From a virus: a stretch of DNA of 64,000 nucleotides. The notes under the pieces were generated by a model that saw only the letters and a program-made list of their open reading frames with translations, was not told the origin of the DNA and ran no database searches. Below are positions 4,950 through 63,717 of this stretch, in pieces; position 1 is the first letter of the stretch, and every line of letters begins with the position of its first letter. The stretch covers positions 1 to 64,000 of the IMG/VR virus record IMGVR_UViG_3300039008_000243, one strand, 5' to 3'. The translations under genes were made by a program, and so were the position numbers.

Positions 4950-5015
4950 TTGACAATTAATTAACTAGTTAATAAGATAGGTACATAAGATAAAAAACAA
5001 ACAGGGAATACTAAA
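4950..5015 (+). promoter_or_regulatory. Early promoter-operator-leader cassette P1
   Basis: TTGACA 4950-4955, 17-bp spacer containing the palindrome ATTAACTAGTTAAT (4960-4973), TAAGAT 4973-4978. The conserved leader is gtacataagataaaaaacaaacagggaatactaaaATG. Confidence 0.75.
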
Positions 5016-5462
5016 ATGACTTTAGATTTTAATTCAATCGGCTGTAATGATTTTAAACATGAAGAGTTTGGTAGATTACAAGTTGTAGGCTCTTGTGATT
5101 GGGTAACTGAATGCCAAAATTGTGGCAGAAAAAATCTTAAAAAGGCAATTGTAATGCAGGATTCCGAGGGTAATTATAGTTTTTATGGTTCTGAGTGCGC
5201 CCATGAAGCTTCTAAAGCTTATTCTAGAGGGCAAAGAGGACCAAAAAACTTTAAATCTTATCAATTTACTTTGAAAGGGCGTACTATTCGTATTACCCGT
5301 CATGCAAATGCTGAGAGAAAAACTCCCGATGGATGGGTATTTCAACCTATCGGAGGTTTGTGCAATCTTTTAGATGATACAAAAGACCAATGGAAAGATA
5401 TTCCAAACATTAATGAAATTTTAGCTATTCTTGAAGAGTACGCGGGTTATCAAAGTTTTTAA
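5016..5462 (+). CDS. Hypothetical protein with CxxC...C-x-H zinc-ribbon-like motif
   Basis: 148 aa containing CQNCGRKN...YGSECAH. It has its own promoter cassette. Confidence 0.55.
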   Translation: MTLDFNSIGCNDFKHEEFGRLQVVGSCDWVTECQNCGRKNLKKAIVMQDSEGNYSFYGSECAHEASKAYSRGQRGPKNFKSYQFTLKGRTIRITRHANAERKTPDGWVFQPIGGLCNLLDDTKDQWKDIPNINEILAILEEYAGYQSF

Positions 5463-5517
5463 TCTCTGCCCTCTATTTTTGAATAGGGGGCATTTGTTCT
5501 TCATTCTCTTTTTCATA

Positions 5518-5700
5518 ATGTCTCAAATAGTTATTGATGAGTTTTTTGCTGGTTATGGTACAGGTAGATATGGTAATGTAGTACCTTTAGAAGCTAGTTG
5601 TCAAGGTTGTTCTAGTTTACAAGGGTGGTATACTTTGGAGCTTCCTAACAAACCTCTTAAAAGGCTTTGTAGAACTTGTATCAAAAAACAGACAGGGTAG
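5518..5700 (+). CDS. Small zinc-ribbon protein (60 aa)
   Basis: ATG at 5518 inside track ORF 5431..5700; contains CQGC...CRTC. The upstream part of the track ORF looks like junk. Confidence 0.4.
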   Translation: MSQIVIDEFFAGYGTGRYGNVVPLEASCQGCSSLQGWYTLELPNKPLKRLCRTCIKKQTG

Positions 5701-5765
5701 ATCCTTTAGGTAAAACAAAGCCTTTATACATAAACAAACCTGGTCAAATCTAAATATACTAAGAG

Positions 5766-5792
5766 TTCCAAGGAGACTTGGGATTTTTTTTT
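5766..5792 (+). terminator. Rho-independent terminator
   Basis: ttccaag-gaga-cttggga followed by T9. Same element as at 7433-7458. Confidence 0.7.
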
Positions 5793-5822
5793 AAATGTGT
5801 AAAAACTTTTTTTGGAAATCTA

Positions 5823-5887
5823 TTGACAATTAATTAACTAGTTAATAAGATAGGTACATAAGCAAAAAACAAACAGGGAATACTAAA
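5823..5887 (+). promoter_or_regulatory. Early promoter-operator-leader cassette P2
   Basis: TTGACA 5823-5828, palindrome ATTAACTAGTTAAT 5833-5846, TAAGAT 5846-5851. The leader is near identical to that of P1. Confidence 0.75.
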
Positions 5888-6340
5888 ATGACTTACTTAA
5901 CTATCTATGAAGCACCTGTAACACCATACTACACTTCTGAGACTAATTTTGAACAAATCGAATTACCTTTAGATGTGGATGCTTACTTCGACTCTTATGT
6001 CGAATCTCACCCCGAACAAACTCTGATTGGCGCCAAAAAGGCTCAGGAAGAGCCTTTAACAATCTCTTCCAAGGGTTTAGACCAGCCAGCAAGAGCTCTT
6101 GTTTTAGAGCTTGTGAGTAGCCTTACAAAGTCTTCCAGTAATCCTAAACACTATTATCTGGAACAGCCTCACTGTTATCCCCACAACAAGGTAATGAAGC
6201 TCTTCTGTACCTTACCTAAAACCCCTGGCAAAATCAAAATCACCTGGTCAATTAAAGCTCAAAGTACGGAGTTAATAATAGATTTCCGTCTAGGTGGCTT
6301 ATCTTTCAAAAGTGTCGAAATGGTTGTTACACCTTTTTAA
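5888..6340 (+). CDS. Hypothetical protein (early cassette)
   Basis: 150-aa ORF directly behind P2. Confidence 0.55.
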   Translation: MTYLTIYEAPVTPYYTSETNFEQIELPLDVDAYFDSYVESHPEQTLIGAKKAQEEPLTISSKGLDQPARALVLELVSSLTKSSSNPKHYYLEQPHCYPHNKVMKLFCTLPKTPGKIKITWSIKAQSTELIIDFRLGGLSFKSVEMVVTPF

Positions 6341-6422
6341 TGCAGACATCTAATCTTTAATAAATAGTTTAATTCCTGACATACACACTTTAATGCAGAC
6401 ATTTAATATCCATTGCAGACAT
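6341..6422 (+). promoter_or_regulatory. Triple direct repeat TGCAGACAT in the 95-bp gap before the next gene
   Basis: TGCAGACAT at 6341-6349, 6394-6402 and 6414-6422. Two copies sit in the longer context ttaatgcagacatYtaat. Confidence 0.4.
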
Positions 6423-6435
6423 ATAGGTAGTACAA

Positions 6436-6651
6436 ATGAACTATTATCAAAATCTCCGTCTAAGAATTAATAATATGCAGGTAGCTACAATGCTTGTCAG
6501 ACGTTTAACTGAAGCTAGTTGCAATACTTACGATGAGATTTGGGATCTATTTAATCTGATTTGTGAGAATCAGCAAGAAGAAGATACAAGAGTTTTAGAA
6601 TCAGAGTTATATGATCTTTTAGCTGCTGATCTAGCTTCTTGTTTGGGTTAA
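6436..6651 (+). CDS. Hypothetical acidic 71-aa protein
   Basis: ORF followed by the terminator at 6703-6735. Confidence 0.45.
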   Translation: MNYYQNLRLRINNMQVATMLVRRLTEASCNTYDEIWDLFNLICENQQEEDTRVLESELYDLLAADLASCLG

Positions 6652-6702
6652 TCCTAACTATTTGTATCAAAATTACACTAATAATAATTTAAAAATTTTT
6701 AT

Positions 6703-6735
6703 AAAAGCCTTCTAAATGTCTAGAAGGCTTTTGTT
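6703..6735 (+). terminator. Rho-independent terminator
   Basis: 12-bp stem aaaagccttcta / tagaaggctttt, 6-nt loop, T-rich tail. Confidence 0.7.
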
Positions 6736-6765
6736 ATTCTTATTAAGTAGTTAATCTATTGTTTT

Positions 6766-7398
6766 ATGAGAACTTTTGAGTATCAAGGTAAATCTTTTTC
6801 CCAACGAGATGAAGATGGCTTTTTTAACGCTAATGAGATGTGTGAAATTTTTGGGGAATTTTTAGATGATATTTTTAACCAAGACTTCATTTGTGGGTAT
6901 TTACATTCCTTAAAGTCTAAAGTCTTGTTTACGTATTCTCCTTATGATTCATTAACTTGTTGGGTACACCCTCGTTTAGCTCTTAGGATAGCCCAGGGAC
7001 TTTCTGATGAGTTTGCTATTTGGTTTGAGGATGAAGTACTAAATCTTTGGCAAAAGTCTCAGAAAAATTCTTTAGATGTTCATATGAAAGATATTAAAGT
7101 GTCCCTAGATGAGATTAAAAAAACTTTAGAGAGTTTTCCTGAACGGAAGTTGACCAGGGATGAAAAGTATGCTTTCAAAGCTGTTACAAATAAGATTTTT
7201 GAATATATAAAAACGAGTAGTGATGGTTTTGTTAGTATAACTTTCTTGCAACAAACCTCTTTAAACAAGAAACAGTGCCTTTTGAAGTATTTTAATATTA
7301 ATTCTATGCGAGTAGAACATTGGAAAGCCTTTGGGGGGATTGTGTCTGATCTAGGGTGGCTTAACTTTGACCAAGGGAAAGGTGTTTTCACAGCTTAA
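6766..7398 (+). CDS. KilA-N domain protein (second copy)
   Basis: FNANEMCEIFGE...CWVHPRLALRIAQGLSDEFAIWFEDEV parallels the 2286..2894 protein. Confidence 0.65.
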   Translation: MRTFEYQGKSFSQRDEDGFFNANEMCEIFGEFLDDIFNQDFICGYLHSLKSKVLFTYSPYDSLTCWVHPRLALRIAQGLSDEFAIWFEDEVLNLWQKSQKNSLDVHMKDIKVSLDEIKKTLESFPERKLTRDEKYAFKAVTNKIFEYIKTSSDGFVSITFLQQTSLNKKQCLLKYFNINSMRVEHWKAFGGIVSDLGWLNFDQGKGVFTA

Positions 7399-7432
7399 TC
7401 CCCCCCCTGGTCAAATCTAGATATACAAAGAG

Positions 7433-7458
7433 TTCCAAGGAGACTTGGGATTTTTTTT
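7433..7458 (+). terminator. Rho-independent terminator
   Basis: ttccaag-gaga-cttggga followed by T8. Confidence 0.7.
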
Positions 7459-7478
7459 GTAAATGTATAAAAAATCTA

Positions 7479-7543
7479 TTGACAATTAATTAACTAGTTA
7501 ATAGAATAAGTACATAAGACAAAAACAAACAGGAAATACGGAA
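7479..7543 (+). promoter_or_regulatory. Early promoter-operator-leader cassette P3
   Basis: TTGACA 7479-7484, palindrome 7489-7502, TAGAAT 7502-7507, conserved leader gtacataagacaaaaacaaacaggaaatacggaaATG. Confidence 0.75.
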
Positions 7544-8050: not shown

Positions 8051-8098
8051 CTTTATTTCATAATCTAAGCTCTCCTTTTACACCTTATCTTTTTTGTT

Positions 8099-8416: not shown

Positions 8417-8424
8417 ATATTAAT

Positions 8425-8563: not shown

Positions 8564-8573
8564 ACTAAAGCGA

Positions 8574-9119
8574 TCATAATATTTTGATCTTTCTGAATTT
8601 TATTTCTTTATGGGTTGTTTCTAATAACTTAAGGTTTACAATTTTGAGTTTTTTTAGTCTTTCATATTCTGAAAGAATAGGGTTATTTTCCCTAATATCA
8701 AAGGTTATAATAAATTTAATCCCGAAGGCTTTTAAAGTCTTAAAACAAGCCATACAAGGCATATGGGTACAAAATAACACTAACCTATTTTGAGCATTCG
8801 GGATAGTCCAGTAAGGGTAGTAAAAACTTATACCAGATAAAAAAATGTTTCTTAACGCCATTATTTCTGCATGAATAGCTCTAGAAGAGACTTCAATTTC
8901 CATACAATGATTATCCCTATCTAAAACCTGGTCACACTTCTTAGTCATGGTACAAGGATTTCCAAAAACGGTGTTTACTCCTGTACTGATAAAGGTACCA
9001 TCGGTTAAATAAATACTAGCTGCCACTTGTTGTCCCAAACAAAAACTTTCTTGGGCATACTCTTCTAGTTGAGTTTTTATTTGGGTTATTTTTAGATTTA
9101 ATTCTGTGCTTATATTCAT
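8574..9119 (-). CDS. dCMP (deoxycytidylate) deaminase
   Basis: Zinc-binding motifs HAEIMAL and PCMAC (H-A-E ... P-C-x-x-C). Size is typical for a phage dCMP deaminase. Confidence 0.85.
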   Translation of the reverse strand: MNISTELNLKITQIKTQLEEYAQESFCLGQQVAASIYLTDGTFISTGVNTVFGNPCTMTKKCDQVLDRDNHCMEIEVSSRAIHAEIMALRNIFLSGISFYYPYWTIPNAQNRLVLFCTHMPCMACFKTLKAFGIKFIITFDIRENNPILSEYERLKKLKIVNLKLLETTHKEIKFRKIKIL

Positions 9120-9430
9120 TAATACCTTATCTCTCTTACTTTGATAATTTTACCTGAATTTATCTTGATGATTTTTAGATTTTGACCAGGTAATCTTTGC
9201 ATAATTGCTTTTATACTTCTTTTTAAGCTATTTGAATGATAGAAATCCTCTATCAAAGAGTTATCTGAAGCTTTTTGAACTGCATAGGTACTTAAAAGTC
9301 CTTTGGCGATCGCCATATTTCTTTCAAATACACTAAAATTTTTTATAACGGATTCCTCAACCTGATCAGGTATATCCTTATCTGCAATTAAACTACTTTC
9401 AAAGGTATATTTTTGCATTAAAAAACTCAT
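9119..9430 (-). CDS. Hypothetical protein
   Basis: ATG at 9430 (the track start at 9433 is a TTG). Stop overlaps the deaminase start. Driven by promoter P5. Confidence 0.5.
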   Translation of the reverse strand: MSFLMQKYTFESSLIADKDIPDQVEESVIKNFSVFERNMAIAKGLLSTYAVQKASDNSLIEDFYHSNSLKRSIKAIMQRLPGQNLKIIKINSGKIIKVREIRY

Positions 9431-9481
9431 CAAGTATAATCTTAATGAGTAATTGTATTATATTAACTAGTTAATTGTCAA
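9431..9481 (-). promoter_or_regulatory. Promoter-operator P5 (minus strand) for the deaminase operon
   Basis: TTGACA (complement of 9476-9481) followed by the palindrome ATTAACTAGTTAAT (9462-9475). It is 4 bp shorter than P1-P4, so the -10 assignment (TATAAT / TAATAC) is ambiguous. Confidence 0.5.
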
Positions 9482-9482
9482 T

Positions 9483-9581
9483 TTATAAGAATATTGGGTG
9501 AAAACCCCGTGTCTTTAGACCGGGGAGTGCCAAAAACTGTAGGTATTTGACACTCCCCGTGTCTTTAGATCGGGGAGTGTC
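9483..9581 (+). repeat. Hairpin-repeat element, two tandem units
   Basis: Unit A is ttataagaatattgggtgaaaaccccgtgtctttagaccggggagtgcc (9483-9531). Unit B is gacactccccg-tgtctttagat-cggggagtgtc (9549-9581), a perfect 11-bp stem. Segments can pair alternatively (A3'/B5'). Unit A recurs inverted at 63801-63848. Confidence 0.7.
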
Positions 9582-9785
9582 AAAGTGGATTTCTTTGATT
9601 GCTGAATTAATTTTGCCCTTGATTTCAGTTAAAAGGTTCAGTTTAATTACTGAACTTTTCTTTGGACTTTTCAGATATGCATTTTGCTTACTGCTATTGT
9701 GGATATTGGGCATCTACAGGAAAAACTCTTCTGTACGTCAAATACTAACTCCAATTACCTTTTACTATAGGTTGAAAATCATCCC

Positions 9786-29169: not shown

Positions 29170-29200
29170 ATAATTACGTAGTTAATTTTTATATCAAAAT

Positions 29201-31579: not shown

Positions 31580-31608
31580 ATTATCCATAGAAAATTTAAA
31601 ATTGTCAA
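31580..31608 (-). promoter_or_regulatory. Sigma70-type promoter for the parB-like/replication operon
   Basis: On the minus strand: TTGACA (31603-31608), 17-bp spacer, GATAAT (31580-31585). The -35 box is the outermost part of the left inverted-repeat arm. Confidence 0.55.
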
Positions 31609-31982
31609 CTAAAAAACCTAATTTTCCTCTTTTTTAACTTTTTTAGTGACTTTTTAGTGAGAATTTTAATCCTTTGAAACTCTTGTAACTAAGAACTGAC
31701 CAGGGTTTCAGAGTTTTTTAGCCGAAAAATACTATTTACATATTTCCCAAAAAGTAAAAAGACTATTCTATATATATACATATTTTTATATAACTATATA
31801 TTCATATAAAAATATGTATATATAATAAACTAAATTTTTAGAAATCCATATGGTAAGATTTGGTAAGAAAATCATTGAAATTCTTGCTATATAAAGGTTT
31901 CAGCGAATAAAATACCTTAAAATTCTCACTAAAAAGTCCCTAAAAAAGTTAAAAAAGAGGAAAATTAGGTTTTTTAGTTGAC
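31604..31982. repeat. 66-bp near-perfect inverted repeat flanking 247 bp of (TA)-rich DNA. Origin-like or parS-like structure, copy 2
   Basis: Arms at 31604-31669 and 31917-31982 have one mismatch (tagtgac vs tagggac). A nested perfect 21-bp inverted repeat lies at 31771-31791 and 31804-31824. Tandem TAGTGA boxes are present in the arms. The structure lies between divergent replication operons. Confidence 0.7.
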
Positions 31983-32007
31983 AAAACCCTGGTCAATTCT
32001 CTATAAA
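31978..32007 (+). promoter_or_regulatory. Sigma70-type promoter for the primase/helicase operon
   Basis: TTGACA 31978-31983 (end of the right repeat arm), 18-bp spacer containing CCTGGTC, TATAAA 32002-32007. An operator-like site ATTAACTAGTCAAT follows at 32011-32024. Confidence 0.55.
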
Positions 32008-32033
32008 ATTATTAACTAGTCAATCAAATACAT

Positions 32034-35785: not shown

Positions 35786-35953
35786 TCAGTATATATCTTT
35801 GATTTCTATACTGAAATATTTACATAGAGCTTCTATGAATACTTGTGTTCTAGATAACCCAGCATCTTTACATTTTTTTTCTAGCTTGTTGAAGAGTTGA
35901 TATGGTAAGTTTACAGAAGTCTTTTTTCTACGTTGTTTGTTATTGTTTGACAT
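35786..35953 (-). CDS. Small ribbon-helix-helix protein (55 aa, below the ORF-track cutoff)
   Basis: Manual translation gives MSNNNKQRRKKTSVNLPYQLFNKLEKKCKDAGLSRTQVFIEALCKYFSIEIKDIY. The layout (basic tail, beta-strand, two helices) is classic CopG/Arc. Followed by a strong terminator. Confidence 0.55.
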   Translation of the reverse strand: MSNNNKQRRKKTSVNLPYQLFNKLEKKCKDAGLSRTQVFIEALCKYFSIEIKDIY

Positions 35954-42200: not shown

Positions 42201-45200
42201 ATAACCTTGACCAGCACTTAGAGTATCTTTAAACAAAGATTTTATATCATTAGGAATCCTAATCTTTAAATCAAGATGCCCTCCTGATGACCATTTATCA
42301 TTGACTGATAATTTTCCTAACCTTTTTCCTGCACCTATCTGCTGACCAGGTTTCAAATCTTTAAGGGTAGTCATATCCATATGACCATAGTCAGTATAGA
42401 ATTGCCCTTTACGACCAGGTAATTGAGAAACTACTCTTATAGCATTACTAGGTCTTCCTGTCACCTTGTCAGTAGTACCTCGCCCCCAACCCTTAAGTGT
42501 TTTAATTACACCAGGAAACATGGCTTGGACAACATCTCTAGACGTTAACCCTTCTGTGCTATCAAAGTCTATACCACTATGTATCCTAGTTCTCTTACCT
42601 GTTCTCCTGTTTAATCTCTTAGCCCAGAAAGCTTGACCAGGGGATACAGAACCTTTGAGAACCTGGTCAAAAGATTGTTTGGCACTAGGGGAAGCATAAA
42701 GTTTTTCTTTATCTTTTTTGACAACCTGGTTAAATAAATTTTGTACCCCATCAACAAAAGTTTTAGTTTTATTATCTAGATTTTCTTTAATTTTTTGAGA
42801 TTTATTCCCTGAAAGTTTATTAACTGCATCAAAGAATTTTTGAGCTGAATTTTTTTCACTTAAGAGTTTATTTGAATTTTCTTTACCAAAATTAGGTTCA
42901 AAATTTAATTTAAAAGTTTCTTTAATCTCTTTTTGTGTTTTGACAATTTTACCTACCAGGGTATCAAATTGATTATTTATACCTGATGCGACGTTTTCTA
43001 AATTTTTGAAACCTTTTTCTAAGTTTTCTGTTTCAGTGACAGATCCTTTTAGTGAGCTTTCAGTCTCTTCTAATTGGTTGTTTACATCCTTATATAAAGT
43101 TTTAGATTTATTAATCAAATCATTTAGATCTTTAGCTTTATATTTAATAGCTTCTTTTATTTCTTTAGCTTTATCAAAACCTAGAATCATTTTATCTATA
43201 TTTTGGTAGTCTAAAGTAATTTCAATAACCCCAGGTATAGATTTTGATAAATCTTGAGCAGATTTTAGAATACTATCAAATTCTCGACTAGATGCTATAT
43301 TAGAACTAACCTTATCTAGCTGGGCTTGTGCTAGGTTATTAGCACTTTCTATTTCTGCAATTAATAAGTCAGCATAAGCACTAATTAACTCATCATCGGA
43401 ACCAATCAAAGCTGTGGCGATTTTATCTGTAGCTTTTGATTGTTTGAGAGTCAGTAAAGCTTTTTTGTATTCTTGCTTTGCATCTACTAGAGATTTTTCT
43501 TGCTCTTTATAGAAATCTAAAACCTGGTTTAATTGATCTTTTATTGTATCTTGAAGAGCCTTTCTCAATTCTAAGACACTAATACGAGTCTCTGCTAATG
43601 CATCTTGTTCATCTCTAAAATCGGCATATTGTTCCAACAAATATTTAGATTGCTCACTTTCAGTTCTTTCAGCTATCTCCCTTATCTTAGCTACACCTGT
43701 CTCAGCTCCAACACCGAATGCTTTTAAAGTTCTTTGGGCTACTTCATTAAAATTAAACAGATTCTCCTTTAAATCTACTGTGGATATTTGTGCTTGCAAT
43801 TCGCCTTCAATTTTAACAAGTTCAGATAATTCTTTAGAAAAATTTAAATCACCACTTGTTAGATTCCTAGATGCTAGAGATATCTTTGTGGCATTACTAA
43901 TATCTGTTATCTGACCCAAAGTATCTTCTAAGGCTATATTTGAGTCTATTATTTGTCTTTTTAACAAATCAAAGGCAGTTGCAGCTAAACCTAGTTTCTT
44001 TAGTATGTTTTCTAAAATCTCTTCTAAGGATTTTGTTACGGACTCTACCTCTTTACTTTGTTGTATAAATTCCTTAGAAGAGATTAAACCTTCATTTCTT
44101 TGCTTTTCTAAAATCTTACTGGTTTTTTTAAGTTGATCAATTCTAGTACTAAGTTGACTCTGTAAAGCTGCTGATGGTTTTAAAGCTTCATATCTTTTCT
44201 TAACTATCTCAGATTCTATTTTAAATAATTCCTTAATTTTTTTAGTGTTATTAGGTTCTAAAACAACTAAAGCTTTTTTATCTTCTTGAATCTGAGTTAA
44301 TTTCTTATCGATGGAAATTACCTGGTCAACTGAATTATTGAATCGAGTGTTTTTAGATATCTTTTCTAAGTTCTTAGCTAAGTTTATTAGTTTGGCTAGT
44401 TCTAATCTAGAATCTTTTAGTCTCTTAACCTTTTCCTCAAAAGAATTGTCAAAGGGGTTTAAAAAGCCTTTTTTATTTTTTTTATATAGTCTATCTAAAT
44501 CTTTATCATTTAAAGATTCTTCACCTAAAAGCTCTCTAAAAACTACACCGGGGTCAAAACCTCTAATTGTTCTAACCCACCATCTTTCTAAAGAAGAGAC
44601 TGTTGTATTTTGAGATGTTTTTTCATTATTTTTGGTAAGTTTACTCAACTCTTCCTGGGCTAATTTAGCTTGTTGTGTGAAATTTTTTAAATCTCCTGAC
44701 ATATTTTTAAATGCCATGGACATTCTGTTAGCAACCTCTACTACTGTGTTAATTAGTAGAAATTGCTTAACAAAAGTTTTTAAACCTGAAATAACTGCAT
44801 TGTTAGTCCAAGATTTTATTTGGGTTCCAATACCTCTAATTCCCTGATCTTTGCCAATTTTAATGAGTTCTGTACCAAATAACTTTATAAGTGTAATAGA
44901 CCTCATTAGACCAGGGGCGGCTAAAGTAGCAATTAAAGAAGTTGAAAGTTTTACAATGTTGCTTAAATTGTTGTCAATAAAGTCAAATCCTATAGTTTTA
45001 ATTTTATTAACTATCTTTTCAATCTCTAAACCTACCCCACCTATTGAATTCTGTAATCTTAAGAAAGAATTTTCTGCTCTATTAGCAATAGCAGAAGCAG
45101 ATTCTAATCTTTTAGGTAAATCACTTGATGTTTCAATTGCTGCTTGTTGAGCGAAACCTATTAAAGCTTCACTACCTACACCACCTTGCCTCATTCTATT

Positions 45201-48200
45201 AAGAAAACTTGGGATATCTTGACCTTGAGATCTAGCAAATATACCAACAGCACCAGGGGCTGCTTCAGCTAATTGTCCTATAATTTCTTCAGCATATATC
45301 TGCCCTTTAGAAGCAGATTGTATTATAGCAGCAAATGCTCTTTGTGTAGCATCCCGGGAAGTAGAACGAACTGCAAAAAATTCTTGTAAATTATTTAGAG
45401 TATCTATGGCTCCTTGCCCTTCTAGAGGTGTTCCTAATGTAGCAGGTAAGAATTGACTGGCACCCTCTAGAGCGGATTGCATCGATAGTCCTAATTTATC
45501 AGCTTTTTCAGTAAAATCGTCAAAGAAATTATTACCAATCTCTCCTCCACCTAAAGCAAAGCTAAATGTTCTCTTGAATCCATTGAATTCCCTGGTAACT
45601 TCTTTAGCACTATCAACAAGATCAAATAGTTGACCTGAAAAAGTAGTAACGATTGTACCCGCTATAGCTAAACCCGCAAAATCACCTAAAACTGATGTCA
45701 AATCAAAACCAATACTATCTGTAAAACCTTTAATCCCTGCTTGAGCTTCTTCAAATAATTCGTAGAGGATATCACCAAATGGAAGATTCTTCATAAATTC
45801 TTTTAAGAGATCAAAACCTTGTATGAAGCCTTCCGCAACTGCTTCACCTATATGGTAAGTTATCCTAGACGGTGACCTTATTTCAAAATCATCCTTCATT
45901 TTTTGAATTATTGCTTGATTGATTTTAGATAATTCTTCTTCTCCTACAGATAATTTATCTTTAATGCCTTCTATTAAGCCTGAAAAAATATCTTGACCTA
46001 ACTGGTTTATTTCTGTATCACTATCTTCACTAAAGGATTCAATAGTAGCCTTTAAAGCAGCACCAAAAGCTTTTTCATCTATTTCCCCTGGAGTGATTTC
46101 AAAGAATACATTATATTTCTTTAAACGATTTTCTAAATTTTTAGTCAGTTCTTGTAAAGTTGTATCATCTAAGTCATTAAAATTAATAGTTGCTTTTAAA
46201 GGTGTTCCAGCGAGTTTACTACTTAAGTCTGTCTTAGCTCTTCTTAAATCCGTTTGCATCACAGATTCAAGTATTTTAGCTACATAACTACTACCTAAAT
46301 CTACAGGAACTTTTTCTGAAATCTTCTCTTTTAGTTTATCTTCAGGTAAATCAAAAGCTAACTTACCTGTAACTCGCATTTTATCTAATTTATCAATTAC
46401 CTGTGAAATTTGCCCTAGAGTTTGAGCTATTTGGCTTCCCCATCTAGTCGCAAAGTCAGAACCTTCTAGAGCTTTATAAGTCTCCTTAATTGCTATTTGA
46501 GCATTTTTAGCTGTTTCATACAAACTGGTCGCTTGTTTATTAGCTTCATCTATATTATTCTTTAGTTCGGCTTTAACATTTTTAAAAGATTCTCTTACTA
46601 ATTCAGATGTTTTTTGAGCATCCCTAACTTCAGGAGGTGTGAAATTTTTCTGAGCATATTCTTGAAAATATTTTTGAGATTTTGCCTCGGGTTTTTTATA
46701 TCTATTGATATCTAAAGAATCCAGGTTGCTTTGAGCTTCTAAAACTTTTTTAAAAATATCATCAGGGATTTTAGAACCATTTTCTATATAATCATTTAAA
46801 GCTGCTTTAAACTCTTCAATTATCAAATAAAAAGGTTCTAGTTTTTTATTGAATTCATCCGTTATTTTATCGAATTGAATCTTATTTCCCTGTGATATAA
46901 TAAATTTTTCTAAATTAACGGATATTTCCTGTGCTTTTTGATTGTTTAGCTCTTTTTCAGAAAACTGGGCTATATATTTAAGAAATTTGATAGCATTAGG
47001 CTTAAACTCTTTTATTATTTGATTCTCTAATTCATCTTCACGAGGTGTCAATTTTAATGAGGATATCTGTTTTTGAACTTTAATAGAATCTTTAAGTAAT
47101 TCTTTAGGAATTTCTGTTCCTAATTTTATATTATTATTCAATGCTATATGAAAATCATCCATCAGCTTTTCAAAATCTTTTAATTGGGATGAAAATTCTT
47201 CTGTCTGATCGGATAAATTTATTAAATTTTTTGTATTTTCCATCCAGAGACCATAATCAACTAATTTTGAAGCTTTTTCTTCATTATTTTTAGAATAAAA
47301 AGCAGGGTCTTTTATATTAGATTGACCAGTGGCGGCTAAAATAGATTTTAATAAAGTAGAAAATTCTGAAGGTAACCTTTTTTTAATATCAATCTCTTCT
47401 CTTCTATTAACTTTTAAACTAGTCTTACCAAAAATATGTAGAGCTTCAGACAACTCTAATAATGCCTTTGGAACTTCGGTGTCTTTATCTACATTTTCTT
47501 TTAAAACTTTCTCAAAATCATTTAAAACTTTCTCAAAAGTTTTTAAATGATTTTGAATTATATCAGGTAAGCCCCCCCAGTTCAGATCTTTTTTAAGATA
47601 CTTCAAAAGTCCTTGAAAATCTTCTAATCTTTTTTGTCTTTGTCCAGATTGGCTAGTAAAAAAGCTATATACACCTTCTTCCTCTGGAATTACTTTAGAT
47701 CCTACTCTTATACTTTTTTGTAATTGTGGGATTTCTTGATAAGCTTTGCTAATGAATCGAATAGTAGAAGATAAATCTTCTGGAGATAATTGAGTAAGAA
47801 TTTCTTCAGGTATTTGTAATTTTTTGCCTAAGAATTTCCCTAGGATATCCAAATATTCTGCATTTTTTTCATAAACAGCATTTGCAACCAATACTGATTG
47901 ATCTCCTGCACCAGCCGCCGATAATAAAGCATTCAAGTTACTATCATCAATAGGATTAGAAAGGGATGCTTTTCTTTGCTTTTGATAAGCATCTGCAACC
48001 TCATTAAAAGCATCCAATAAGTTATTTGTACGTACAGAATCTGGATCAGCAAAAAACTTATCAATAGTTCCTTGCATCCTAGTAAGTTTATTTATTCTGT
48101 TAGACAAGGCTAGTGTAGGTGCTAAATACTCCGGAGCTAAGGTAGACCCTACATACCCTGGCATTTGTCTTTCCATTTCAGATCTTACGGTAGGATCGGA

Positions 48201-50033
48201 GTAGTAAAGCTTAGGGTCATGAACAGCCATACTTGGCGCTGTAGCAAAACCAGGTATTACCGTTGTATTTGCTGTAGGAGAGACAAACTGAAAAGGGAAG
48301 GTTAAAGGGTCTTCTTTACCTATCAAAGCGGTATAATTAGGGTTATACCAACCAGATTGGCCATATAAACCAGCACCTACCCCTACCCCAGTCATTGGTA
48401 CCCCCAACTGGTTAGCTAGTTGTACCCCTTGTTCCATAGGATATACTCCCCCAGAAAAGGCTGTACCAGATATTTTGATATCTGGATACTTTTCTTGAAT
48501 AGCCGCAGCTATAGAAGCTATTCTGACTGAGTCGGGATTAAAACCTTTGAAGGAAGTTCCTAAAAGTTTTTCAAAGTTTTGAATAGTAAATACCATGTCC
48601 TTAGAGATCTTTCCCCCAGTAAGATCCACAAGTAGATTCAAAAGTTCAGATTCAGTGTCGTTAGGAGATCTATCGGTATATGTATTAGGTACTGGGATGA
48701 CCGCAGTTTTTTCATTAAAAAGTGGGGACATCACATTAGCTATATCAGCACCCCCCTTACCCTTTAATTGTTGAAAACCTCCCATGGTTAGAACAACATT
48801 CTCTTTACCTTCTAAATTAGGCATTCCACCAGGTAATTTGACTCCCCTGGTCGCTACTTGCTCTCTAGCTAGATCTAAGGCTTCTCTTTGTATGACTTTA
48901 TTTTTGAATCTCAAAGGGTGCCCTAGTGCTTTGACTAATAAACCTATTAATTGCAATTCTCTTTTAGGTACTACCCCTCGCTGTTCTAGGAATTCATTAA
49001 AATCTGGGATACCCCCTTTAGATTTAGTATCCTTCATATATTGAATAAAAGCTTTTTTTAGTTCTTTGGGTTGCTTACTCATCTCTGTAGAGGCAATTGT
49101 TTGAAAAGCTTCTAAACGTTTCAAACTTTTTTGTAAGATGTTATCTACTGGATCTTTTAAGTTATCGCTAAAAATTTGTTTGAATACATTATTAGATACC
49201 TCTGTTTGAGTTCCATCTTTATTAGTAATAATCTCTTTATCAGTAAATTTTTGAGCATTTTTAAGCATATAGACCAGGTTGGCTAACCAATCTTCAGCGA
49301 TTAAAGATACTGCTCTCATTTTCCTAGCATCAAAAGTTGTATCAAAGAAATCAAACATTAATGCCTGTGCTTTTGTAATATCCGCTTTAAAATCTGATAT
49401 CTTTTTGTAATTTAAAGCATTAGATAACTCTTCAAAAGCAATTTTACCTTTTTCTTTGAAAAACTCAAAAGATTTTATAGTAAAATTATCAACTTTTTGA
49501 GAAAGATTGAGAGATTTTACGTTTAAAATTTTATTAAAAGATTTCTGAAACTGTCCTGAGATTGTTTCACCTATATTCAAGAATACACCTGAAAAGAGAG
49601 CTTTGAAAGGACTTGAGATAATGGAGGTAATTCTACTTAAAAAGCCTGTTTTTTGACTTTTAATTAGCTCTTTAATCCCTGCTTTAAAAGAAGATTGTAT
49701 AATATTACCTAAAAACTTATCAGACCTGTTAGATTGTTTTAAAAAGTCTGAGGTCTTTAATAAATCTAATCTTTTATTATTAGATACAGGTTTAGATGCC
49801 AAAGATTTTTTAGAATCTTGATAGGTGTTTAATTTATTCTCAAACCTAGCCAGGTTTCTATTTAGGCTTTGTAAATTACTGTTTAAAGTTGTAGTTTGAG
49901 GTGATCGAGTTGAAATAGAATTTAAGGAAGGTTGAAGATTTAAGAAAAAAGTTTGTCGATTTAATGCCGAAATATCTTTTTTTAATTTTCGGGTATTTAA
50001 GAAAGCATCAACACTTATAGAGGCTACTTGCAT
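39252..50033 (-). CDS. Tail tape measure protein, 3593 aa, with embedded M23 peptidase and lambda-R-like lytic transglycosylase domains
   Basis: A giant, mostly coiled-coil/helical ORF located downstream of the putative major tail and chaperone genes. See the domain features below. The C-terminus carries GG(R/K)IPYYPMGG repeats. Confidence 0.85.
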   Translation of the reverse strand: MQVASISVDAFLNTRKLKKDISALNRQTFFLNLQPSLNSISTRSPQTTTLNSNLQSLNRNLARFENKLNTYQDSKKSLASKPVSNNKRLDLLKTSDFLKQSNRSDKFLGNIIQSSFKAGIKELIKSQKTGFLSRITSIISSPFKALFSGVFLNIGETISGQFQKSFNKILNVKSLNLSQKVDNFTIKSFEFFKEKGKIAFEELSNALNYKKISDFKADITKAQALMFDFFDTTFDARKMRAVSLIAEDWLANLVYMLKNAQKFTDKEIITNKDGTQTEVSNNVFKQIFSDNLKDPVDNILQKSLKRLEAFQTIASTEMSKQPKELKKAFIQYMKDTKSKGGIPDFNEFLEQRGVVPKRELQLIGLLVKALGHPLRFKNKVIQREALDLAREQVATRGVKLPGGMPNLEGKENVVLTMGGFQQLKGKGGADIANVMSPLFNEKTAVIPVPNTYTDRSPNDTESELLNLLVDLTGGKISKDMVFTIQNFEKLLGTSFKGFNPDSVRIASIAAAIQEKYPDIKISGTAFSGGVYPMEQGVQLANQLGVPMTGVGVGAGLYGQSGWYNPNYTALIGKEDPLTFPFQFVSPTANTTVIPGFATAPSMAVHDPKLYYSDPTVRSEMERQMPGYVGSTLAPEYLAPTLALSNRINKLTRMQGTIDKFFADPDSVRTNNLLDAFNEVADAYQKQRKASLSNPIDDSNLNALLSAAGAGDQSVLVANAVYEKNAEYLDILGKFLGKKLQIPEEILTQLSPEDLSSTIRFISKAYQEIPQLQKSIRVGSKVIPEEEGVYSFFTSQSGQRQKRLEDFQGLLKYLKKDLNWGGLPDIIQNHLKTFEKVLNDFEKVLKENVDKDTEVPKALLELSEALHIFGKTSLKVNRREEIDIKKRLPSEFSTLLKSILAATGQSNIKDPAFYSKNNEEKASKLVDYGLWMENTKNLINLSDQTEEFSSQLKDFEKLMDDFHIALNNNIKLGTEIPKELLKDSIKVQKQISSLKLTPREDELENQIIKEFKPNAIKFLKYIAQFSEKELNNQKAQEISVNLEKFIISQGNKIQFDKITDEFNKKLEPFYLIIEEFKAALNDYIENGSKIPDDIFKKVLEAQSNLDSLDINRYKKPEAKSQKYFQEYAQKNFTPPEVRDAQKTSELVRESFKNVKAELKNNIDEANKQATSLYETAKNAQIAIKETYKALEGSDFATRWGSQIAQTLGQISQVIDKLDKMRVTGKLAFDLPEDKLKEKISEKVPVDLGSSYVAKILESVMQTDLRRAKTDLSSKLAGTPLKATINFNDLDDTTLQELTKNLENRLKKYNVFFEITPGEIDEKAFGAALKATIESFSEDSDTEINQLGQDIFSGLIEGIKDKLSVGEEELSKINQAIIQKMKDDFEIRSPSRITYHIGEAVAEGFIQGFDLLKEFMKNLPFGDILYELFEEAQAGIKGFTDSIGFDLTSVLGDFAGLAIAGTIVTTFSGQLFDLVDSAKEVTREFNGFKRTFSFALGGGEIGNNFFDDFTEKADKLGLSMQSALEGASQFLPATLGTPLEGQGAIDTLNNLQEFFAVRSTSRDATQRAFAAIIQSASKGQIYAEEIIGQLAEAAPGAVGIFARSQGQDIPSFLNRMRQGGVGSEALIGFAQQAAIETSSDLPKRLESASAIANRAENSFLRLQNSIGGVGLEIEKIVNKIKTIGFDFIDNNLSNIVKLSTSLIATLAAPGLMRSITLIKLFGTELIKIGKDQGIRGIGTQIKSWTNNAVISGLKTFVKQFLLINTVVEVANRMSMAFKNMSGDLKNFTQQAKLAQEELSKLTKNNEKTSQNTTVSSLERWWVRTIRGFDPGVVFRELLGEESLNDKDLDRLYKKNKKGFLNPFDNSFEEKVKRLKDSRLELAKLINLAKNLEKISKNTRFNNSVDQVISIDKKLTQIQEDKKALVVLEPNNTKKIKELFKIESEIVKKRYEALKPSAALQSQLSTRIDQLKKTSKILEKQRNEGLISSKEFIQQSKEVESVTKSLEEILENILKKLGLAATAFDLLKRQIIDSNIALEDTLGQITDISNATKISLASRNLTSGDLNFSKELSELVKIEGELQAQISTVDLKENLFNFNEVAQRTLKAFGVGAETGVAKIREIAERTESEQSKYLLEQYADFRDEQDALAETRISVLELRKALQDTIKDQLNQVLDFYKEQEKSLVDAKQEYKKALLTLKQSKATDKIATALIGSDDELISAYADLLIAEIESANNLAQAQLDKVSSNIASSREFDSILKSAQDLSKSIPGVIEITLDYQNIDKMILGFDKAKEIKEAIKYKAKDLNDLINKSKTLYKDVNNQLEETESSLKGSVTETENLEKGFKNLENVASGINNQFDTLVGKIVKTQKEIKETFKLNFEPNFGKENSNKLLSEKNSAQKFFDAVNKLSGNKSQKIKENLDNKTKTFVDGVQNLFNQVVKKDKEKLYASPSAKQSFDQVLKGSVSPGQAFWAKRLNRRTGKRTRIHSGIDFDSTEGLTSRDVVQAMFPGVIKTLKGWGRGTTDKVTGRPSNAIRVVSQLPGRKGQFYTDYGHMDMTTLKDLKPGQQIGAGKRLGKLSVNDKWSSGGHLDLKIRIPNDIKSLFKDTLSAGQGYSYVDVKQFMKWYKKQADAIGKKASTNLIENATTKFKKPGKNTTENYLDKFRKKLPPFPQQKAPTGGNPNLMPEIRRGGNDLSENEIKRLTSLGKRLYGLRNNPNILALSDAVARAEGTDFRKWTKNFGYGMLIGNENISDFSGHPFVEGGRPYRYNSSASGRYQMMDFNYSRSRVKRQFGKNARTDLESIINYQGQDTPKSFSPGLQDLYFIASLHKRGVLDKVLKGNFDQGTFNKIAPHWASIQYKGRKSYYGGQGTPEGQFKNIQTFTRKRLAARQKEPGVKRAESALSVLEKPTKLTEESLEAHKKQLLEFISKYKKPGQVKSKPGEINLEEHTKKLQDFIIADRKQKAGERGNIPAFQKAQTTIKNATELAKEAQQIKNQTAEIQKQNLNYSEQVKLIQNRKKANLAEVKEEKQRIKKLNDLFGLQKSLSQEIDPLKTRLGEFNQQILNIDEKFLGIIQEKKEEIKNLDQNIIAGQELIQIALDKQKPLLAEKLKIGVQNLKFEKENTQQLIDQLPLIQSQTKEKLRSLFTAREELELSKQAVENDKRRLSIQQANQSLLEAKKQIDPTLSQKDLVKVQNRNELEQQRVSYQEQLNSLQEKRINDPNYSIEQYLKEASGLSKVNELTKERLNLIGKFNQRQAAIQDDEDKLTRVREIEDLANNPAFQRRQLEIDQYRGNPFIKNRMSRELEREQENLRYKRELEDLELNQRKLIEANNAIPDNVFAKMKEDLAIINQMNLESINQKFKTFGDTLNEVGANAMQNLATGITDIIMGTSSLENVLDNFFNSILSQVLNTGLTSIFGGLFGGLFYEGGMVGRYPMGGRIPYYPMGGKIPYYAEGGTYPRYSQGLMDGLRKERSESGRDPRLAIVHEGELIIPADRTEELMRAGLTPEQLLGNLPSYANGGLVSTTSIPGRNQQTNMTVEYVSIGEMDYVTKEQFDQGIQQASRNGAEGGYNKVANQLRNDVNFRRNVGLQG
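41480..41900 (-). other. Lambda lysozyme (gpR, GH104-like lytic transglycosylase) domain inside the tape measure protein
   Basis: AVARAEGTDF...GYGMLIGNENISDFSGHP...SSASGRYQMM parallels lambda R: LAWSEGTD...GYDVIVGG..FTDYSDHP...STGAGRYQLL. Confidence 0.75.
42255..42640 (-). other. Peptidase M23 (LytM-type) domain inside the tape measure protein
   Basis: RIHSGIDFD (the H-x-x-x-D motif) and GGHLDLKI, at the position of the usual H-x-H motif, with the second His replaced by Asp. Confidence 0.7.
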
Positions 50034-51764: not shown

Positions 51765-51827
51765 TTGACAATTAATTAACTAGTTAATATAATAGGTACA
51801 TAAGACAAAAACAACTGGTTACTCAAA
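51765..51827 (+). promoter_or_regulatory. Early promoter-operator-leader cassette P4 (inside the late structural region)
   Basis: TTGACA 51765-51770, palindrome ATTAACTAGTTAAT 51775-51788, TATAAT 51788-51793, leader gtacataagacaaaaacaac.... Confidence 0.75.
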
Positions 51828-61225: not shown

Positions 61226-61278
61226 TAAGCAAAGAATTATTAGAATTATTAAAAGGTATAAAATCTGTTGAATTAATA

Positions 61279-61575
61279 TTATAACCATAATTGATTTTTA
61301 GCCTCAATAGATTTTAATTCCAAAGTCTTTACATCATAATGAATAAGGTAAGCAATATCCTTAAACACATAAATGAAAGAATGAACATAATTATCACAAG
61401 CAGGAAAGGGAATAGAAGGAGGATCTGAATAAAAATGGATTCTAGTCTTAATTTTATCCCATAGAGATAGAACTTCATCATCTATTTGATTAAGAAGTTC
61501 AAACTCTTTAAGAAGATAAAAAAGTTCTTTTTTTAGTTCAGCACACTTAAAAGACAATTTTAAATCTTTAAACAT
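61279..61575 (-). CDS. Hypothetical protein, tandem paralog A
   Basis: Shares EFEL-N-ID-E-L--WD-IK--IH-Y--P ... AY---Y---TL-L--IE-KN with 61581..61901. Confidence 0.5.
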   Translation of the reverse strand: MFKDLKLSFKCAELKKELFYLLKEFELLNQIDDEVLSLWDKIKTRIHFYSDPPSIPFPACDNYVHSFIYVFKDIAYLIHYDVKTLELKSIEAKNQLWL

Positions 61576-61580
61576 TTTAT

Positions 61581-61901
61581 TTAACCTACTAAATTTTTAC
61601 GTTCAATCCTTAACAAATCCAATGTGACCAGGTTATAAGTAAGGATGTAAGCTCTTTTCTTATAAAGTGTCACAAAAGAACATTTAGGTTTTTTCAAGGA
61701 AGCTAAGTCAGGAATGGGTTCAGCATAGTGATGTATGTTTGACTTAATTTGATCCCAAATGAATAAAATTTCAGCATCAATACAATTAGAAAGCTCAAAC
61801 TCCTCGATCAAATGGTTTAAATACCCTTGCAAAGAAGACACAATCATAAGATTTTTAGCTTGCAAAAGATTTTTCTGTATGTTAAACATGGGTAGTTGCA
61901 T
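61581..61901 (-). CDS. Hypothetical protein, tandem paralog B
   Basis: See paralog A. The two genes are 5 nt apart. Confidence 0.5.
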   Translation of the reverse strand: MQLPMFNIQKNLLQAKNLMIVSSLQGYLNHLIEEFELSNCIDAEILFIWDQIKSNIHHYAEPIPDLASLKKPKCSFVTLYKKRAYILTYNLVTLDLLRIERKNLVG

Positions 61902-61913
61902 TGAAAAATTTAG

Positions 61914-62432
61914 TTAAACTCCAGTAGACCCAAAACCTTGTTGTTGACGACCCGATACTTCCCTATACTTTTTAGAAAAAGAGTAAGAAAAACTAAATGT
62001 CTCAGGGATAAAAACTGGGCAACAAACTATTTGGGCTATCCTATCCCCTTGATAAATTGTATGAGCTTTATTTGAGACATTGGAAAGGATAATTTTAATT
62101 TCACCGGTATAGCCATAATCTATTGTTCCAGGAGAGTTAGAAACTACAAGCCCTTTTATTGATAAACTGCTACGACTCCTTACTTGAGCTTCTGTATACA
62201 TTTGAGTAAGCCCAATGTGACCCTCAAAATTAAAGAAAATAGGCTCGGGTAATTCTACACCCCATCCAGTCGGAATAATTTCAATCTGACCAGGGGATAA
62301 TGTTAGCTCTGCATTATCTTTACCATCATCTAAGAGAGCTCTCAAATCAAACCCAGAATCTGTACTATGCTTTCGAATAGGTGCTTGGGCTTTTGGATGT
62401 AATCTTACAAAATACATTAAATGTCTTCTCAT
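61914..62432 (-). CDS. dut: dUTP diphosphatase (trimeric dUTPase)
   Basis: Motifs DSGFDL, RSRSSL, GTIDYGYTGEI, GDRIAQIV and QGFGSTG. The true start may be the second Met (62417). Confidence 0.85.
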   Translation of the reverse strand: MRRHLMYFVRLHPKAQAPIRKHSTDSGFDLRALLDDGKDNAELTLSPGQIEIIPTGWGVELPEPIFFNFEGHIGLTQMYTEAQVRSRSSLSIKGLVVSNSPGTIDYGYTGEIKIILSNVSNKAHTIYQGDRIAQIVCCPVFIPETFSFSYSFSKKYREVSGRQQQGFGSTGV

Positions 62433-62482
62433 TTTAATAATTTAAGTGGATCTACAAAGGTTTCTAAGGCTAAAATTGAGGG

Positions 62483-62794
62483 TTATTTGAACTTTTTAGT
62501 ACATTTAGAAGACCTTCTAGTAAAGACTGTACTATAACAAACAAAAAGTACCTGGTGATCGTAAAGAGAAAAAGAGTCTATAGACTTAGGTTGAGGCTTA
62601 GGTTGGGGTTTTCTAGTGAATTTAAAAGGATTTCTAACCTCATCACAGTTATTTAAAAGGGAATCACCTAAAATTTCTTGACAAAGAGTTCTCTTATTTG
62701 AGTTAGCTCTTTCTTTAGCTTGACCAGGGGAGCAAAAAGATAGAACAATTAAAGAAGATAGGGCACAAGAAGAGAAAAGATTTTTAAGAGACAT
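62483..62794 (-). CDS. Small secreted Cys-containing basic protein (paralog 2)
   Basis: ATG at 62794 gives the signal peptide MSLKNLFSSCALSSLIVLSFCSPGQA. The C-[EQ]-x-[FI]-LG...C pattern is shared with 62854..63168. Confidence 0.5.
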   Translation of the reverse strand: MSLKNLFSSCALSSLIVLSFCSPGQAKERANSNKRTLCQEILGDSLLNNCDEVRNPFKFTRKPQPKPQPKSIDSFSLYDHQVLFVCYSTVFTRRSSKCTKKFK

Positions 62795-62853
62795 GATAAG
62801 AAACCAATAAGTATTTACAAGGTTTCTAAGGCTATTTATAAAACTTTGATTAT

Positions 62854-63168
62854 TTATTTCTTGCAACGGTTACGACGACCACCCAAACCATGACGATAAC
62901 CACGAATAGCTGCTACATCAGCTTCATAACCTCTAGGGGCTTTTTGTTGATTCTTACAAGTATTAGAAGGTTTTTTAGAAGGTTTTTGAGGACTTCTATT
63001 TATATTCTTACAAGAACCAGGGATAACAAAACCTAAAAATTTCTCACAACGAATAACGATCTTGTCAGATGTTTCAAAACGTCCTGAGCCTCTTTCGTTA
63101 GCAGAAACAGTTTGAGAAGGCAATAAAGAAGAGATCAACAACAAGGAAAGTAGCAATTTAGATTTCAT
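62854..63168 (-). CDS. Small secreted Cys-containing basic protein (paralog 1)
   Basis: Signal peptide MKSKLLLSLLLISSLLPSQTVSA, then a Lys/Arg/Pro-rich mature part. Confidence 0.55.
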   Translation of the reverse strand: MKSKLLLSLLLISSLLPSQTVSANERGSGRFETSDKIVIRCEKFLGFVIPGSCKNINRSPQKPSKKPSNTCKNQQKAPRGYEADVAAIRGYRHGLGGRRNRCKK

Positions 63169-63235
63169 GATTGTTAACTTAAGATGAAAGGAATAAAGTA
63201 GATGTACTAAATGAACTGGAAAGCTGTGTAAAAAC

Positions 63236-63385
63236 TTACTTAAGCTTATTTAAGTTTGTTTGTTGAATTTCTAATAGTAACTCCTGTTTGTCTACTTTTT
63301 TATCATATTCAGGGCGTTCAACAGGTTCTACGGGTTTAAAAGGAAAGGGAAAAGCCAGTGAAGGATTTTTGATTTCTTGTGACAT
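63236..63385 (-). CDS. Small ORF (49 aa, below the track cutoff)
   Basis: Manual translation gives MSQEIKNPSLAFPFPFKPVEPVERPEYDKKVDKQELLLEIQQTNLNKLK. Co-oriented in the operon. Confidence 0.3.
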   Translation of the reverse strand: MSQEIKNPSLAFPFPFKPVEPVERPEYDKKVDKQELLLEIQQTNLNKLK

Positions 63386-63440
63386 AAACTTTTAGATTTT
63401 TGGGGACTAAAAATTTTCTAAGGCTTTTTGATAAATTTTA

Positions 63441-63656
63441 TTAAAATCCAGGATAATTTCTTATACAAGAAGAGGATTTATTCTTCAAACTTCTCAAAAG
63501 TTTTGAGTTAGCTGTAGCATCGGTAGCGAGTTCAAGAAGATATTGGTGTAAATCTATTTGACGATATTGTCTATGGAATTTAATTATCTCTTGAAGTTCA
63601 TTAAAAACTTCTGTGGGAATTTCTAAGGCAATGGTTACGTGTTTGGGTTCTGTCAT
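63441..63656 (-). CDS. Ribbon-helix-helix-like small protein (71 aa), first gene behind P6
   Basis: HVTIALEIPTEVFNELQEIIKF has a beta-strand plus helix pattern. Weaker than the other two RHH calls. Confidence 0.5.
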   Translation of the reverse strand: MTEPKHVTIALEIPTEVFNELQEIIKFHRQYRQIDLHQYLLELATDATANSKLLRSLKNKSSSCIRNYPGF

Positions 63657-63717
63657 TTAGTATTCTCCGTGTTTTTCTTATGTAAACATAATAATTGATT
63701 AACTAGTTAATTGTCAA
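63657..63717 (-). promoter_or_regulatory. Early promoter-operator-leader cassette P6 (minus strand)
   Basis: TTGACA (complement of 63712-63717), palindrome ATTAACTAGTTAAT 63698-63711, TATTAT at 18 bp. The leader ttacataagaaaaacacggagaatactaaATG resembles P1-P4. Confidence 0.65.

Follow-up and report, generated by a model that had tools for sequence, protein, structure and literature searches.

In the Streptomyces phage phiC31, near-identical early promoters each carry a conserved inverted repeat that is bound by the phage repressor; phiC31 is a temperate phage, and its early promoters depart from the -35/-10 consensus. In phage P1, 22 dispersed operators are under the control of one repressor, C1 (PMC8546580), and the L5-type mycobacteriophages have more than 20 short sites genome-wide, located in promoters and in short intergenic gaps (PMC9283540). 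Among the ribbon-helix-helix (RHH) proteins, two dimers of CopG have as their primary target a 13-bp symmetric element that overlaps the promoter -35 box, and Arc, at the phage P22 promoter Pant, does not prevent polymerase binding but blocks the formation of a stable open complex (PMC2724298). Here we describe a family of promoter-operator-leader cassettes in the virus record IMGVR_UViG_3300039008_000243, of which positions 1 to 64,000 (the window in what follows) were analysed; the window is most of a phage genome of about 69 kb. Six cassettes contain the same perfect 14-bp palindrome, ATTAACTAGTTAAT, close behind a TTGACA -35 box. With a probability of about 0.6, we interpret the cassettes as promoters for the host polymerase in which the palindrome would be the operator for a small phage-encoded repressor, so that the units behind them would be switched together. 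To our knowledge, gene regulation in phages of filamentous cyanobacteria has been little studied.

Like the P1 C1 regulon, the family comprises many operator copies distributed genome-wide, replication functions included. P1, however, is temperate and its operator is a 17-bp asymmetric sequence, whereas here a perfect 14-bp palindrome lies within near-identical promoters. The sites of the family at 6742, 29173 and 3266 resemble the class of L5 stoperators found away from promoters, but the L5 sites are asymmetric 13-mers that are bound by a monomer and whose orientation follows transcription; in the present genome the main site is symmetric and the variants have no consistent orientation. The arrangement is also like that of P22 Arc/Pant and pMV158 CopG/Pcr, in which a small repressor gene is first in its own operon and a short symmetric element lies over the core promoter, and one candidate regulator discussed below, gp4157, resembles Arc and CopG. 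Those systems have one or two promoters, in contrast to the six or more dispersed promoters here. The family differs from the known dispersed-operator regulons in its perfect palindrome, in its near-identical consensus promoters with a shared leader, and in the apparent absence of lysogeny genes. General concepts of phage regulation are unchanged by it. The design is a familiar one, and phiC31 has it too. A literature search found no paper with the 14-mer ATTAACTAGTTAAT.

Putative promoters and operator sites

An initial annotation of this DNA, made from the letters alone, had proposed five closely similar cassettes (P1-P4 and P6), a sixth (P5) with a small deletion, and a one-mismatch site at the primase promoter. 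All of its coordinates hold, and a search of the genome with the 14-mer found a larger family. There are six exact copies of ATTAACTAGTTAAT, one in each of P1 to P6, and two copies with one mismatch, at the primase promoter and at 6742 (Table 1). When up to two mismatches were allowed, 13 matches were found where 1.9 are expected, a number that was reached in none of 100 shuffles. The degenerate form ATTANSTASTTAAT (ATTA-N-S-TA-S-TTAAT) has 11 distinct sites against 0.04 expected, and 11 of the 11 are intergenic. Three variant sites, beginning at 3266, 4044 and 29173, are identical to one another (AATTACGTAGTTAATT). Five variant sites and the promoter P7 had been absent from the initial list. 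No additional copy of the palindrome was present in the approximately 5 kb of genome past the end of the window.

Cassettes P1 to P4 have a common layout, TCTATTGACA followed by ATTA and the 14-mer, in which the final T of the palindrome is also the first base of the -10 box and the spacer is 17 bp. In P5 the 14-mer follows TTGACA directly, and in P6 the 14-mer is followed by CAAT; both have a spacer of 18 bp. The supposed likeness of all five cassettes is therefore true of P1-P4, whereas P6, like P5, has its palindrome directly against the -35 box, a shift of 4 bp. A conserved TCTA precedes the -35 box of the cassettes. All of P1-P7, together with the primase promoter and the promoter at 4080, have an exact TTGACA; spacers are 17 or 18 bp, and the -10 boxes have the form TAnnnT (TAGACT in P7), with TATAAA at primase. 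The idea that consensus sigma70 promoters carry the palindrome in their spacer was thus borne out, and a match of the cassettes to host primary-sigma (sigma70/SigA type 1) promoters is supported. No phage RNA polymerase or sigma factor was found among about 50 proteins scanned.

The position of the dyad relative to the promoter is not the same throughout. Counted from the -10 boxes, it extends from about -25 to -12 in P1-P4, from -30 to -17 in P5 and P6, and from -3 to +11 at the primase promoter, where ATTAACTAGTCAAT (32011-32024) begins 3 bp after the -10 box and would cover the likely start site. The promoter at 4080, which precedes the gene for gp4157, has two variant sites: 22 nt separate ATTACGTAGTTAAT (4044-4057) from the -35 box that follows it, and ATTATGTACTTAAT (4104-4117) lies over the -10 box and the presumed +1. 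P7 differs from P3 at three positions, two of which are symmetric changes that turn CTAG into TTAA and so keep the palindrome (ATTAATTAATTAAT). There is no open reading frame (ORF) downstream of P7; it reads into a 23-mer/hairpin element described below and is antisense to the 3' end of a ribonucleotide reductase gene.

The variants differ at symmetric positions 6 and 9 of the 14-mer. The six main operators have C/G there, the site at 4104 is G/C-like and P7 has T/A, whereas the hybrid sites (6742, 3266, 4044 and 29173) show a mixture. The variants at 6742 and 29173 are oppositely oriented relative to their genes. At least two classes of site are present, and the proposal that a single repressor serves all of them is not established.

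From 4.0 to 9.5 kb, short units follow one another, each with one or two genes and most of them closed by a terminator. According to the initial annotation, every small gene between 4.4 and 8.4 kb comes with a cassette copy and a terminator of its own. This is roughly correct, but the units hold one or two genes, and the KilA-N gene at 6766 has a variant site alone, without a full cassette. Behind P5, the second gene (8574-9119) looks like a dCMP deaminase from its sequence.

Table 1. Coordinates of putative promoters, palindromic sites, adjoining genes and candidate regulators in the window
Feature	Coordinates	Strand	Description
P1	4946-5015	+	TCTATTGACA, ATTA and 14-mer (4960-4973); -10 box TAAGAT (4973-4978); A/C-rich leader of about 35 nt
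Gene behind P1	ATG 5016	+	148-aa orphan protein
P2	5819-5887	+	14-mer 5833-5846; -10 box TAAGAT; precedes an unrelated 150-aa gene (5888)
P3	7475-7543	+	14-mer 7489-7502; -10 box TAGAAT; precedes 168-aa (7544) and 105-aa (8099) genes
P4	51761-51827	+	14-mer 51775-51788; -10 box TATAAT; precedes SWIM-like 123-aa gene (51828) and Dam-family methylase (52249)
P5	9419-9481	-	TTGACA directly followed by 14-mer (9462-9475); -10 box TACAAT; distinct leader; precedes 104-aa gene
P6	63657-63721	-	TCTATTGACA, 14-mer (63698-63711), CAAT and -10 box TATTAT; shared leader
Genes behind P6	63441-63656 (first)	-	71-aa orphan, then small ORFs and dUTPase
P7	63764-63792	+	TTGACA-17-TAGACT; divergent from P6; spacer (ATTA)4; palindromic variant ATTAATTAATTAAT
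Primase promoter	31978-32033	+	TTGACA 31978-31983; 18-bp spacer; TATAAA 32002-32007; ATG 32034
Promoter of Arc/CopG-like gene	4080-4108 (region 4044-4117)	+	TTGACA-17-TATTAT
One-mismatch site ATTAAGTAGTTAAT	6742-6755		Between terminator 6701-6734 and ATG of KilA-N gene (6766); no clear -35/-10 nearby
Variant site ATTACGTAGTTAAT	3266-3279		Long non-coding stretch, no obvious promoter
Variant site ATTACGTAGTTAAT	29173-29186		3 nt upstream of helicase ATG (29169, minus), after a terminator-like hairpin
Candidate regulator 1, gp63441	63441-63656	-	71-aa helical orphan, first behind P6 (autoregulatory position)
Candidate regulator 2, gp4157	4157-4381	+	74-aa Arc/CopG-like putative RHH protein
Candidate regulator 3, gp35786	35786-35953	-	55-57-aa ORF; sequence pattern resembles strand-helix-helix; no family match

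Conservation of the palindrome

The pattern of conservation was compared along the cassettes. In P1-P4, 24 of 24 columns are invariant from the -35 box through the 14-mer, against 11 of 30 in the neighbouring upstream sequence and 3 of 5 inside the -10 box. Across all six exact cassettes the 14-mer is invariant at 14 of 14 positions, while the -10 box shows five to six versions. The palindrome is also not fixed to one place in the promoter: in P5 and P6 it lies 4 bp nearer to the -35 box, and P6 keeps its 18-bp spacer through four other bases. Moreover, it recurs without the rest of the cassette, at the primase start site and, as a variant, over the -10/+1 region of the promoter at 4080. Three facts, an invariant 14-mer beside a variable -10 box, the shifts in position, and the recurrence over presumed start sites, thus speak for selection on the palindrome as a site of protein binding.

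The genes that follow the cassettes encode mutually unrelated proteins, so the cassette spread as a module rather than through gene duplication; judged from its sequence, the promoter-operator-leader unit is a portable module placed before unrelated genes.

Searches for the cassette pattern outside this genome gave no match in viral contigs or in a collection with one genome per species, and metagenome contigs gave 14 unrelated single matches only. Three contigs of distant terminase relatives (at most 47% identity) contained no such cassette. Among unrelated contigs, L003, L008 and L012/L013 each have a single promoter in which TTGACA precedes a palindrome that contains ATTAACTAGTTAAT, for example TTGACATATTAACTAGTTAATATGATAAT in L008. 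The ATTAACTAGTTAAT core may serve as an operator in unrelated organisms too.

Proposed regulation and candidate regulators

From the sequence architecture, the site statistics and the pattern of conservation we propose the following circuit. The cassettes would be strong promoters for the host primary-sigma RNA polymerase, and would drive units that are non-structural: small orphan genes, nucleotide-metabolism genes, the Dam-family methylase and primase. The 14-bp palindrome would serve as operator and be recognised by a small DNA-binding protein, dimeric or tetrameric and sequence-specific, which the phage itself most likely encodes. Bound within the polymerase footprint, such a protein would lower initiation, and all units would be switched together. 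It might do so by excluding polymerase, the steric occlusion that the initial annotation had proposed, or by a block after polymerase has bound, as reported for Arc at Pant. Repression is the most likely direction of regulation, because sites in the spacer or over the start lie within the polymerase footprint and spacers of 17-18 bp need no MerR-like distortion. The simplest circuit would be negative feedback, in which early transcription makes the repressor and the repressor then shuts the early promoters, since the first gene behind P6 encodes a small helical orphan and the promoter of the Arc/CopG-like gene has variant sites. The presence of family sites at both P6 and the promoter at 4080 fits autoregulation with early shut-off.

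Three small proteins were considered as candidates for the regulator (Table 1), which the initial annotation had expected to be an RHH protein. For gp4157 this expectation is credible; for gp63441, the first protein behind P6, there is no RHH evidence in sequence or fold. gp63441 had no Pfam or PHROG match, an exhaustive HMMER search over 1.84 billion representatives returned the query alone, and its low-confidence three-helix model had no meaningful structural match. gp4157 misses family significance for RHH (15.4 bits with Pfam RHH_1, whose cut-off is 20.5; E 0.018), and its other matches are weak but concordant: an Arc-like PHROG at E 0.0024 and a CopG-family regulator in PDB at E 0.98. A word-indexed search with gp4157 returned the query alone. 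In its predicted structure, helices 37-50 and 54-70 follow an extended segment, and the predicted local distance difference test (pLDDT) score is about 85 in the core. The top Foldseek matches of this model are the RHH proteins PrpA, Arc (1par, an Arc-operator structure) and ParD, with target-normalised template modelling (TM) scores of 0.65-0.74 and root-mean-square deviations of 1.3-1.6 A, but with E above 1. gp63441 and gp4157 are not similar to each other. On the basis of sequence and model, gp4157 is the only credible RHH protein among the three.

An extension of the proposed circuit takes the site variants as a code, in which gp63441, gp4157 and gp35786 would have different specificities at positions 6 and 9 and would produce a timed cascade in a lytic cyanophage. 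This is a speculative scheme that we think quite improbable; were it true, the circuit would be built wholly from one portable promoter-operator-leader module. If the simpler proposal of co-switched cassettes is confirmed, the family would define a sharply bounded transcriptional regulon in a phage that infects a filamentous cyanobacterium. Cyanobacterial engineering would then also gain strong consensus promoters, a compact 14-bp operator together with its natural variants, a short leader free of structure, and at least one very small orthogonal repressor.

Alternative explanations

Several observations weigh against an operator for a phage repressor. With 95% identity between P1 and P2 over 74 nt, some of the conservation is due to recent copying, and the terminator-to-promoter stretches before P2 and P3 are homologous as well. 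The spacer versions differ by whole ATTA units (one in P5 and P6, two in P1-P4, four in P7), and replication slippage of such units could yield some of the pattern without selection. The sites at 3266, 6742 and 29173 are outside recognisable promoters. Both gp63441 and gp4157 are orphans, the former without a recognisable DNA-binding fold, and the genome is a singleton, so there is no covariation of operator and regulator to compare. The copying and the ATTA steps would be accounted for directly if the promoters were real but the palindrome had no binding partner, the cassettes having been spread by recent copying or gene conversion and the AT-rich palindromic spacer being a by-product of slippage. 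Copying alone, however, would have kept the -10 box too, yet there are five to six versions of it beside a single 14-mer. The 14-mer also recurs outside the homology of the cassettes, at the primase start and at five variant sites, and the 11 sites of the degenerate form far exceed expectation. We therefore regard this explanation as unlikely.

It is also conceivable that the palindrome has a binding partner other than a phage repressor: a host factor, or an activator or co-factor of the phage. Such a partner would couple early expression to the physiology of the host or help to recruit polymerase. No phage protein could be assigned to the site, and single arrangements of TTGACA with TTAACTAGTTAA occur in unrelated metagenome contigs; similar cellular regulators may exist. 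Polymerase is nevertheless normally hindered by binding at such positions, inside a spacer of 17-18 bp or across the start, and the 60 kb of Nostocales DNA sampled contained no such site; we find a partner of this kind rather improbable. Activation of the MerR type needs spacers of 19-20 bp, and as a role for the spacer palindrome it was rejected, the spacers here being 17-18 bp. A further explanation would make the palindrome chiefly a DNA-level site, such as a target of restriction-modification systems or nucleases (ACTAGT and CTAG both lie within it) or a site of recombination through which the cassette moves, with the place of the palindrome in promoters secondary. The cassette does precede unrelated genes, and its borders coincide with terminators and other repeats. 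But CTAG is not avoided in the genome (224 observed, 192 expected), ACTAGT is also found outside the cassettes (15 in total), no recombinase or homing nuclease was found adjoining the cassettes, and the fixed position relative to the -35 and -10 boxes would be left unexplained. This possibility appears very remote to us, and the reading of the palindrome as an operator for a small phage-encoded repressor remains the one that we prefer.

Leaders and translation starts

The A/C-rich leader of about 35 nt had been described as common to five cassettes. It is near-identical in P1-P3, but P4 and P6 share only part of it. Its description as unstructured agrees with calculated folding: from the presumed start through the first codons, the minimum free energy of the leaders is 0 to -4.3 kcal/mol, no more stable than that of shuffles. 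Weak use of Shine-Dalgarno (SD) sequences, which had also been assumed, was found as well, a loose SD-like 4-mer being present before 17 of 54 genes. The cassette leaders, except that of P4, have GGGA, AGGA or GGAG 9-10 nt before the ATG. An unstructured A/C-rich leader with a weak GGGA/GGAG box would give uniform and efficient translation starts in a genome where SD sequences are mostly missing.

In the distinct leader of P5, the stretch from the -10 box to the start codon contains a 10-bp hairpin with UUUUUU directly behind it (9425-9450, minus strand). An attenuator or a 5' stabilising hairpin is a possible role for this structure.

Phage genome and likely host

The same sequence is present as a 69,015-bp contig of the Joint Genome Institute (JGI), and a Logan contig of the phage is identical to the window sequence, so that there is no variation to compare. 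Phage genes found in the window include those for the large terminase, portal, major capsid protein and cement protein. An ORF of 3593 aa (39252-50033, minus strand) matches the tape measure family PF20155, solely at residues 1477-1661. By the usual relation of tape measure length to tail length, a protein of this size implies a very long tail. Hairpin promoters of the N4 type, read by a giant virion RNA polymerase, were considered and rejected, given the match of this ORF to a tape measure family. The window further encodes a family-A DNA polymerase, a primase (DUF3987), ThyX, a helicase, a Dam-family methylase and two KilA-N proteins. In the annotation of the Logan contig there are a dUTPase and, just past the end of the window, a class II ribonucleotide reductase with inteins. 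Two large genes adjoin P6 and P7 there (contig L002, 319-4977, the genome past window position 64000), and they have signatures of a class II ribonucleotide reductase insertion domain, an intein and a LAGLIDADG homing endonuclease. Two pairs of paralogues were seen: gp61279 and gp61581 (61279-61901, minus strand) with 41% identity, and the KilA-N proteins (2286-2894 and 6766-7398) with 23% identity and E 6e-11.

No tRNA and no Rfam family were detected in the window. A scan of about 50 of the encoded proteins, many of them without a match, turned up neither an integrase nor a partition gene, nor any other function for maintenance as a plasmid prophage. Neither megablast nor a tblastn search with the primase against 50,697 phage records gave a DNA or primase match, and the nearest other terminase among 5.8 billion proteins has 47% identity. 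By its sequence, the element is a novel siphovirus-like, long-tailed phage without close relatives.

An IS200/IS605 insertion sequence (IS) element lies within the phage genome at its left end (17-1886), with tnpB at 17-1396 on the minus strand and tnpA at 1371-1886 on the plus strand. A contig of a distant relative (L017) likewise has TnpB adjoining its terminase. The host is probably a filamentous (Nostocales) cyanobacterium, because the TnpB of the left-end element has 85% identity with those of Dolichospermum, Calothrix, Anabaena and Nodularia, and the G+C content of the first 2 kb is 38%, compared with about 32% elsewhere in the window.

Other repeats in the genome

An octamer, TGACCAGG/CCTGGTCA, mostly with G or T as the next base, is present in 58 copies between 2248 and 63968, against 1.0 expected. 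Copies occur on either strand and in every reading frame in which no stop would result; 14 of the 58 copies are intergenic and none is in the IS element. The octamer was not found in 57 kb of Nostocales DNA, which carries HIP1 (GCGATCGC) instead; HIP1 itself has one copy in the window. A distant terminase relative (L018) has an octamer of its own, AACCAAGG, with 18 copies in 13 kb. Judged by these counts, TGACCAGG looks like a highly iterated octamer that is specific to the phage lineage.

Two non-coding regions, 3439-3836 and 31604-31985, are similar to each other, with an AT-rich core, (TA)n-like runs and inverted TTTAGTGACTTTTTAGTGAGAATTTTAA flanks. The second has arms of about 70 bp and lies between divergent blocks of replication genes, with the primase promoter in its right arm; the end of the Logan contig falls exactly at 31955. 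Both regions may be replication origins.

An exact 23-mer, TTATAAGAATATTGGGTGAAAAC, is present three times, adjoining P1, P5 and P7 (4911-4933 and 9483-9505 on the plus strand, 63827-63849 on the minus strand). Searches of viral and genome collections and of Rfam gave no match to it. Two of the three copies are fused to a CCCCG-N11-CGGGG hairpin; hairpins of this kind lie at 9505-9525, 9555-9575 and 63807-63827, and the hairpin at 9545-9585 has a 13-bp stem. One copy of the 23-mer would be transcribed from P7.

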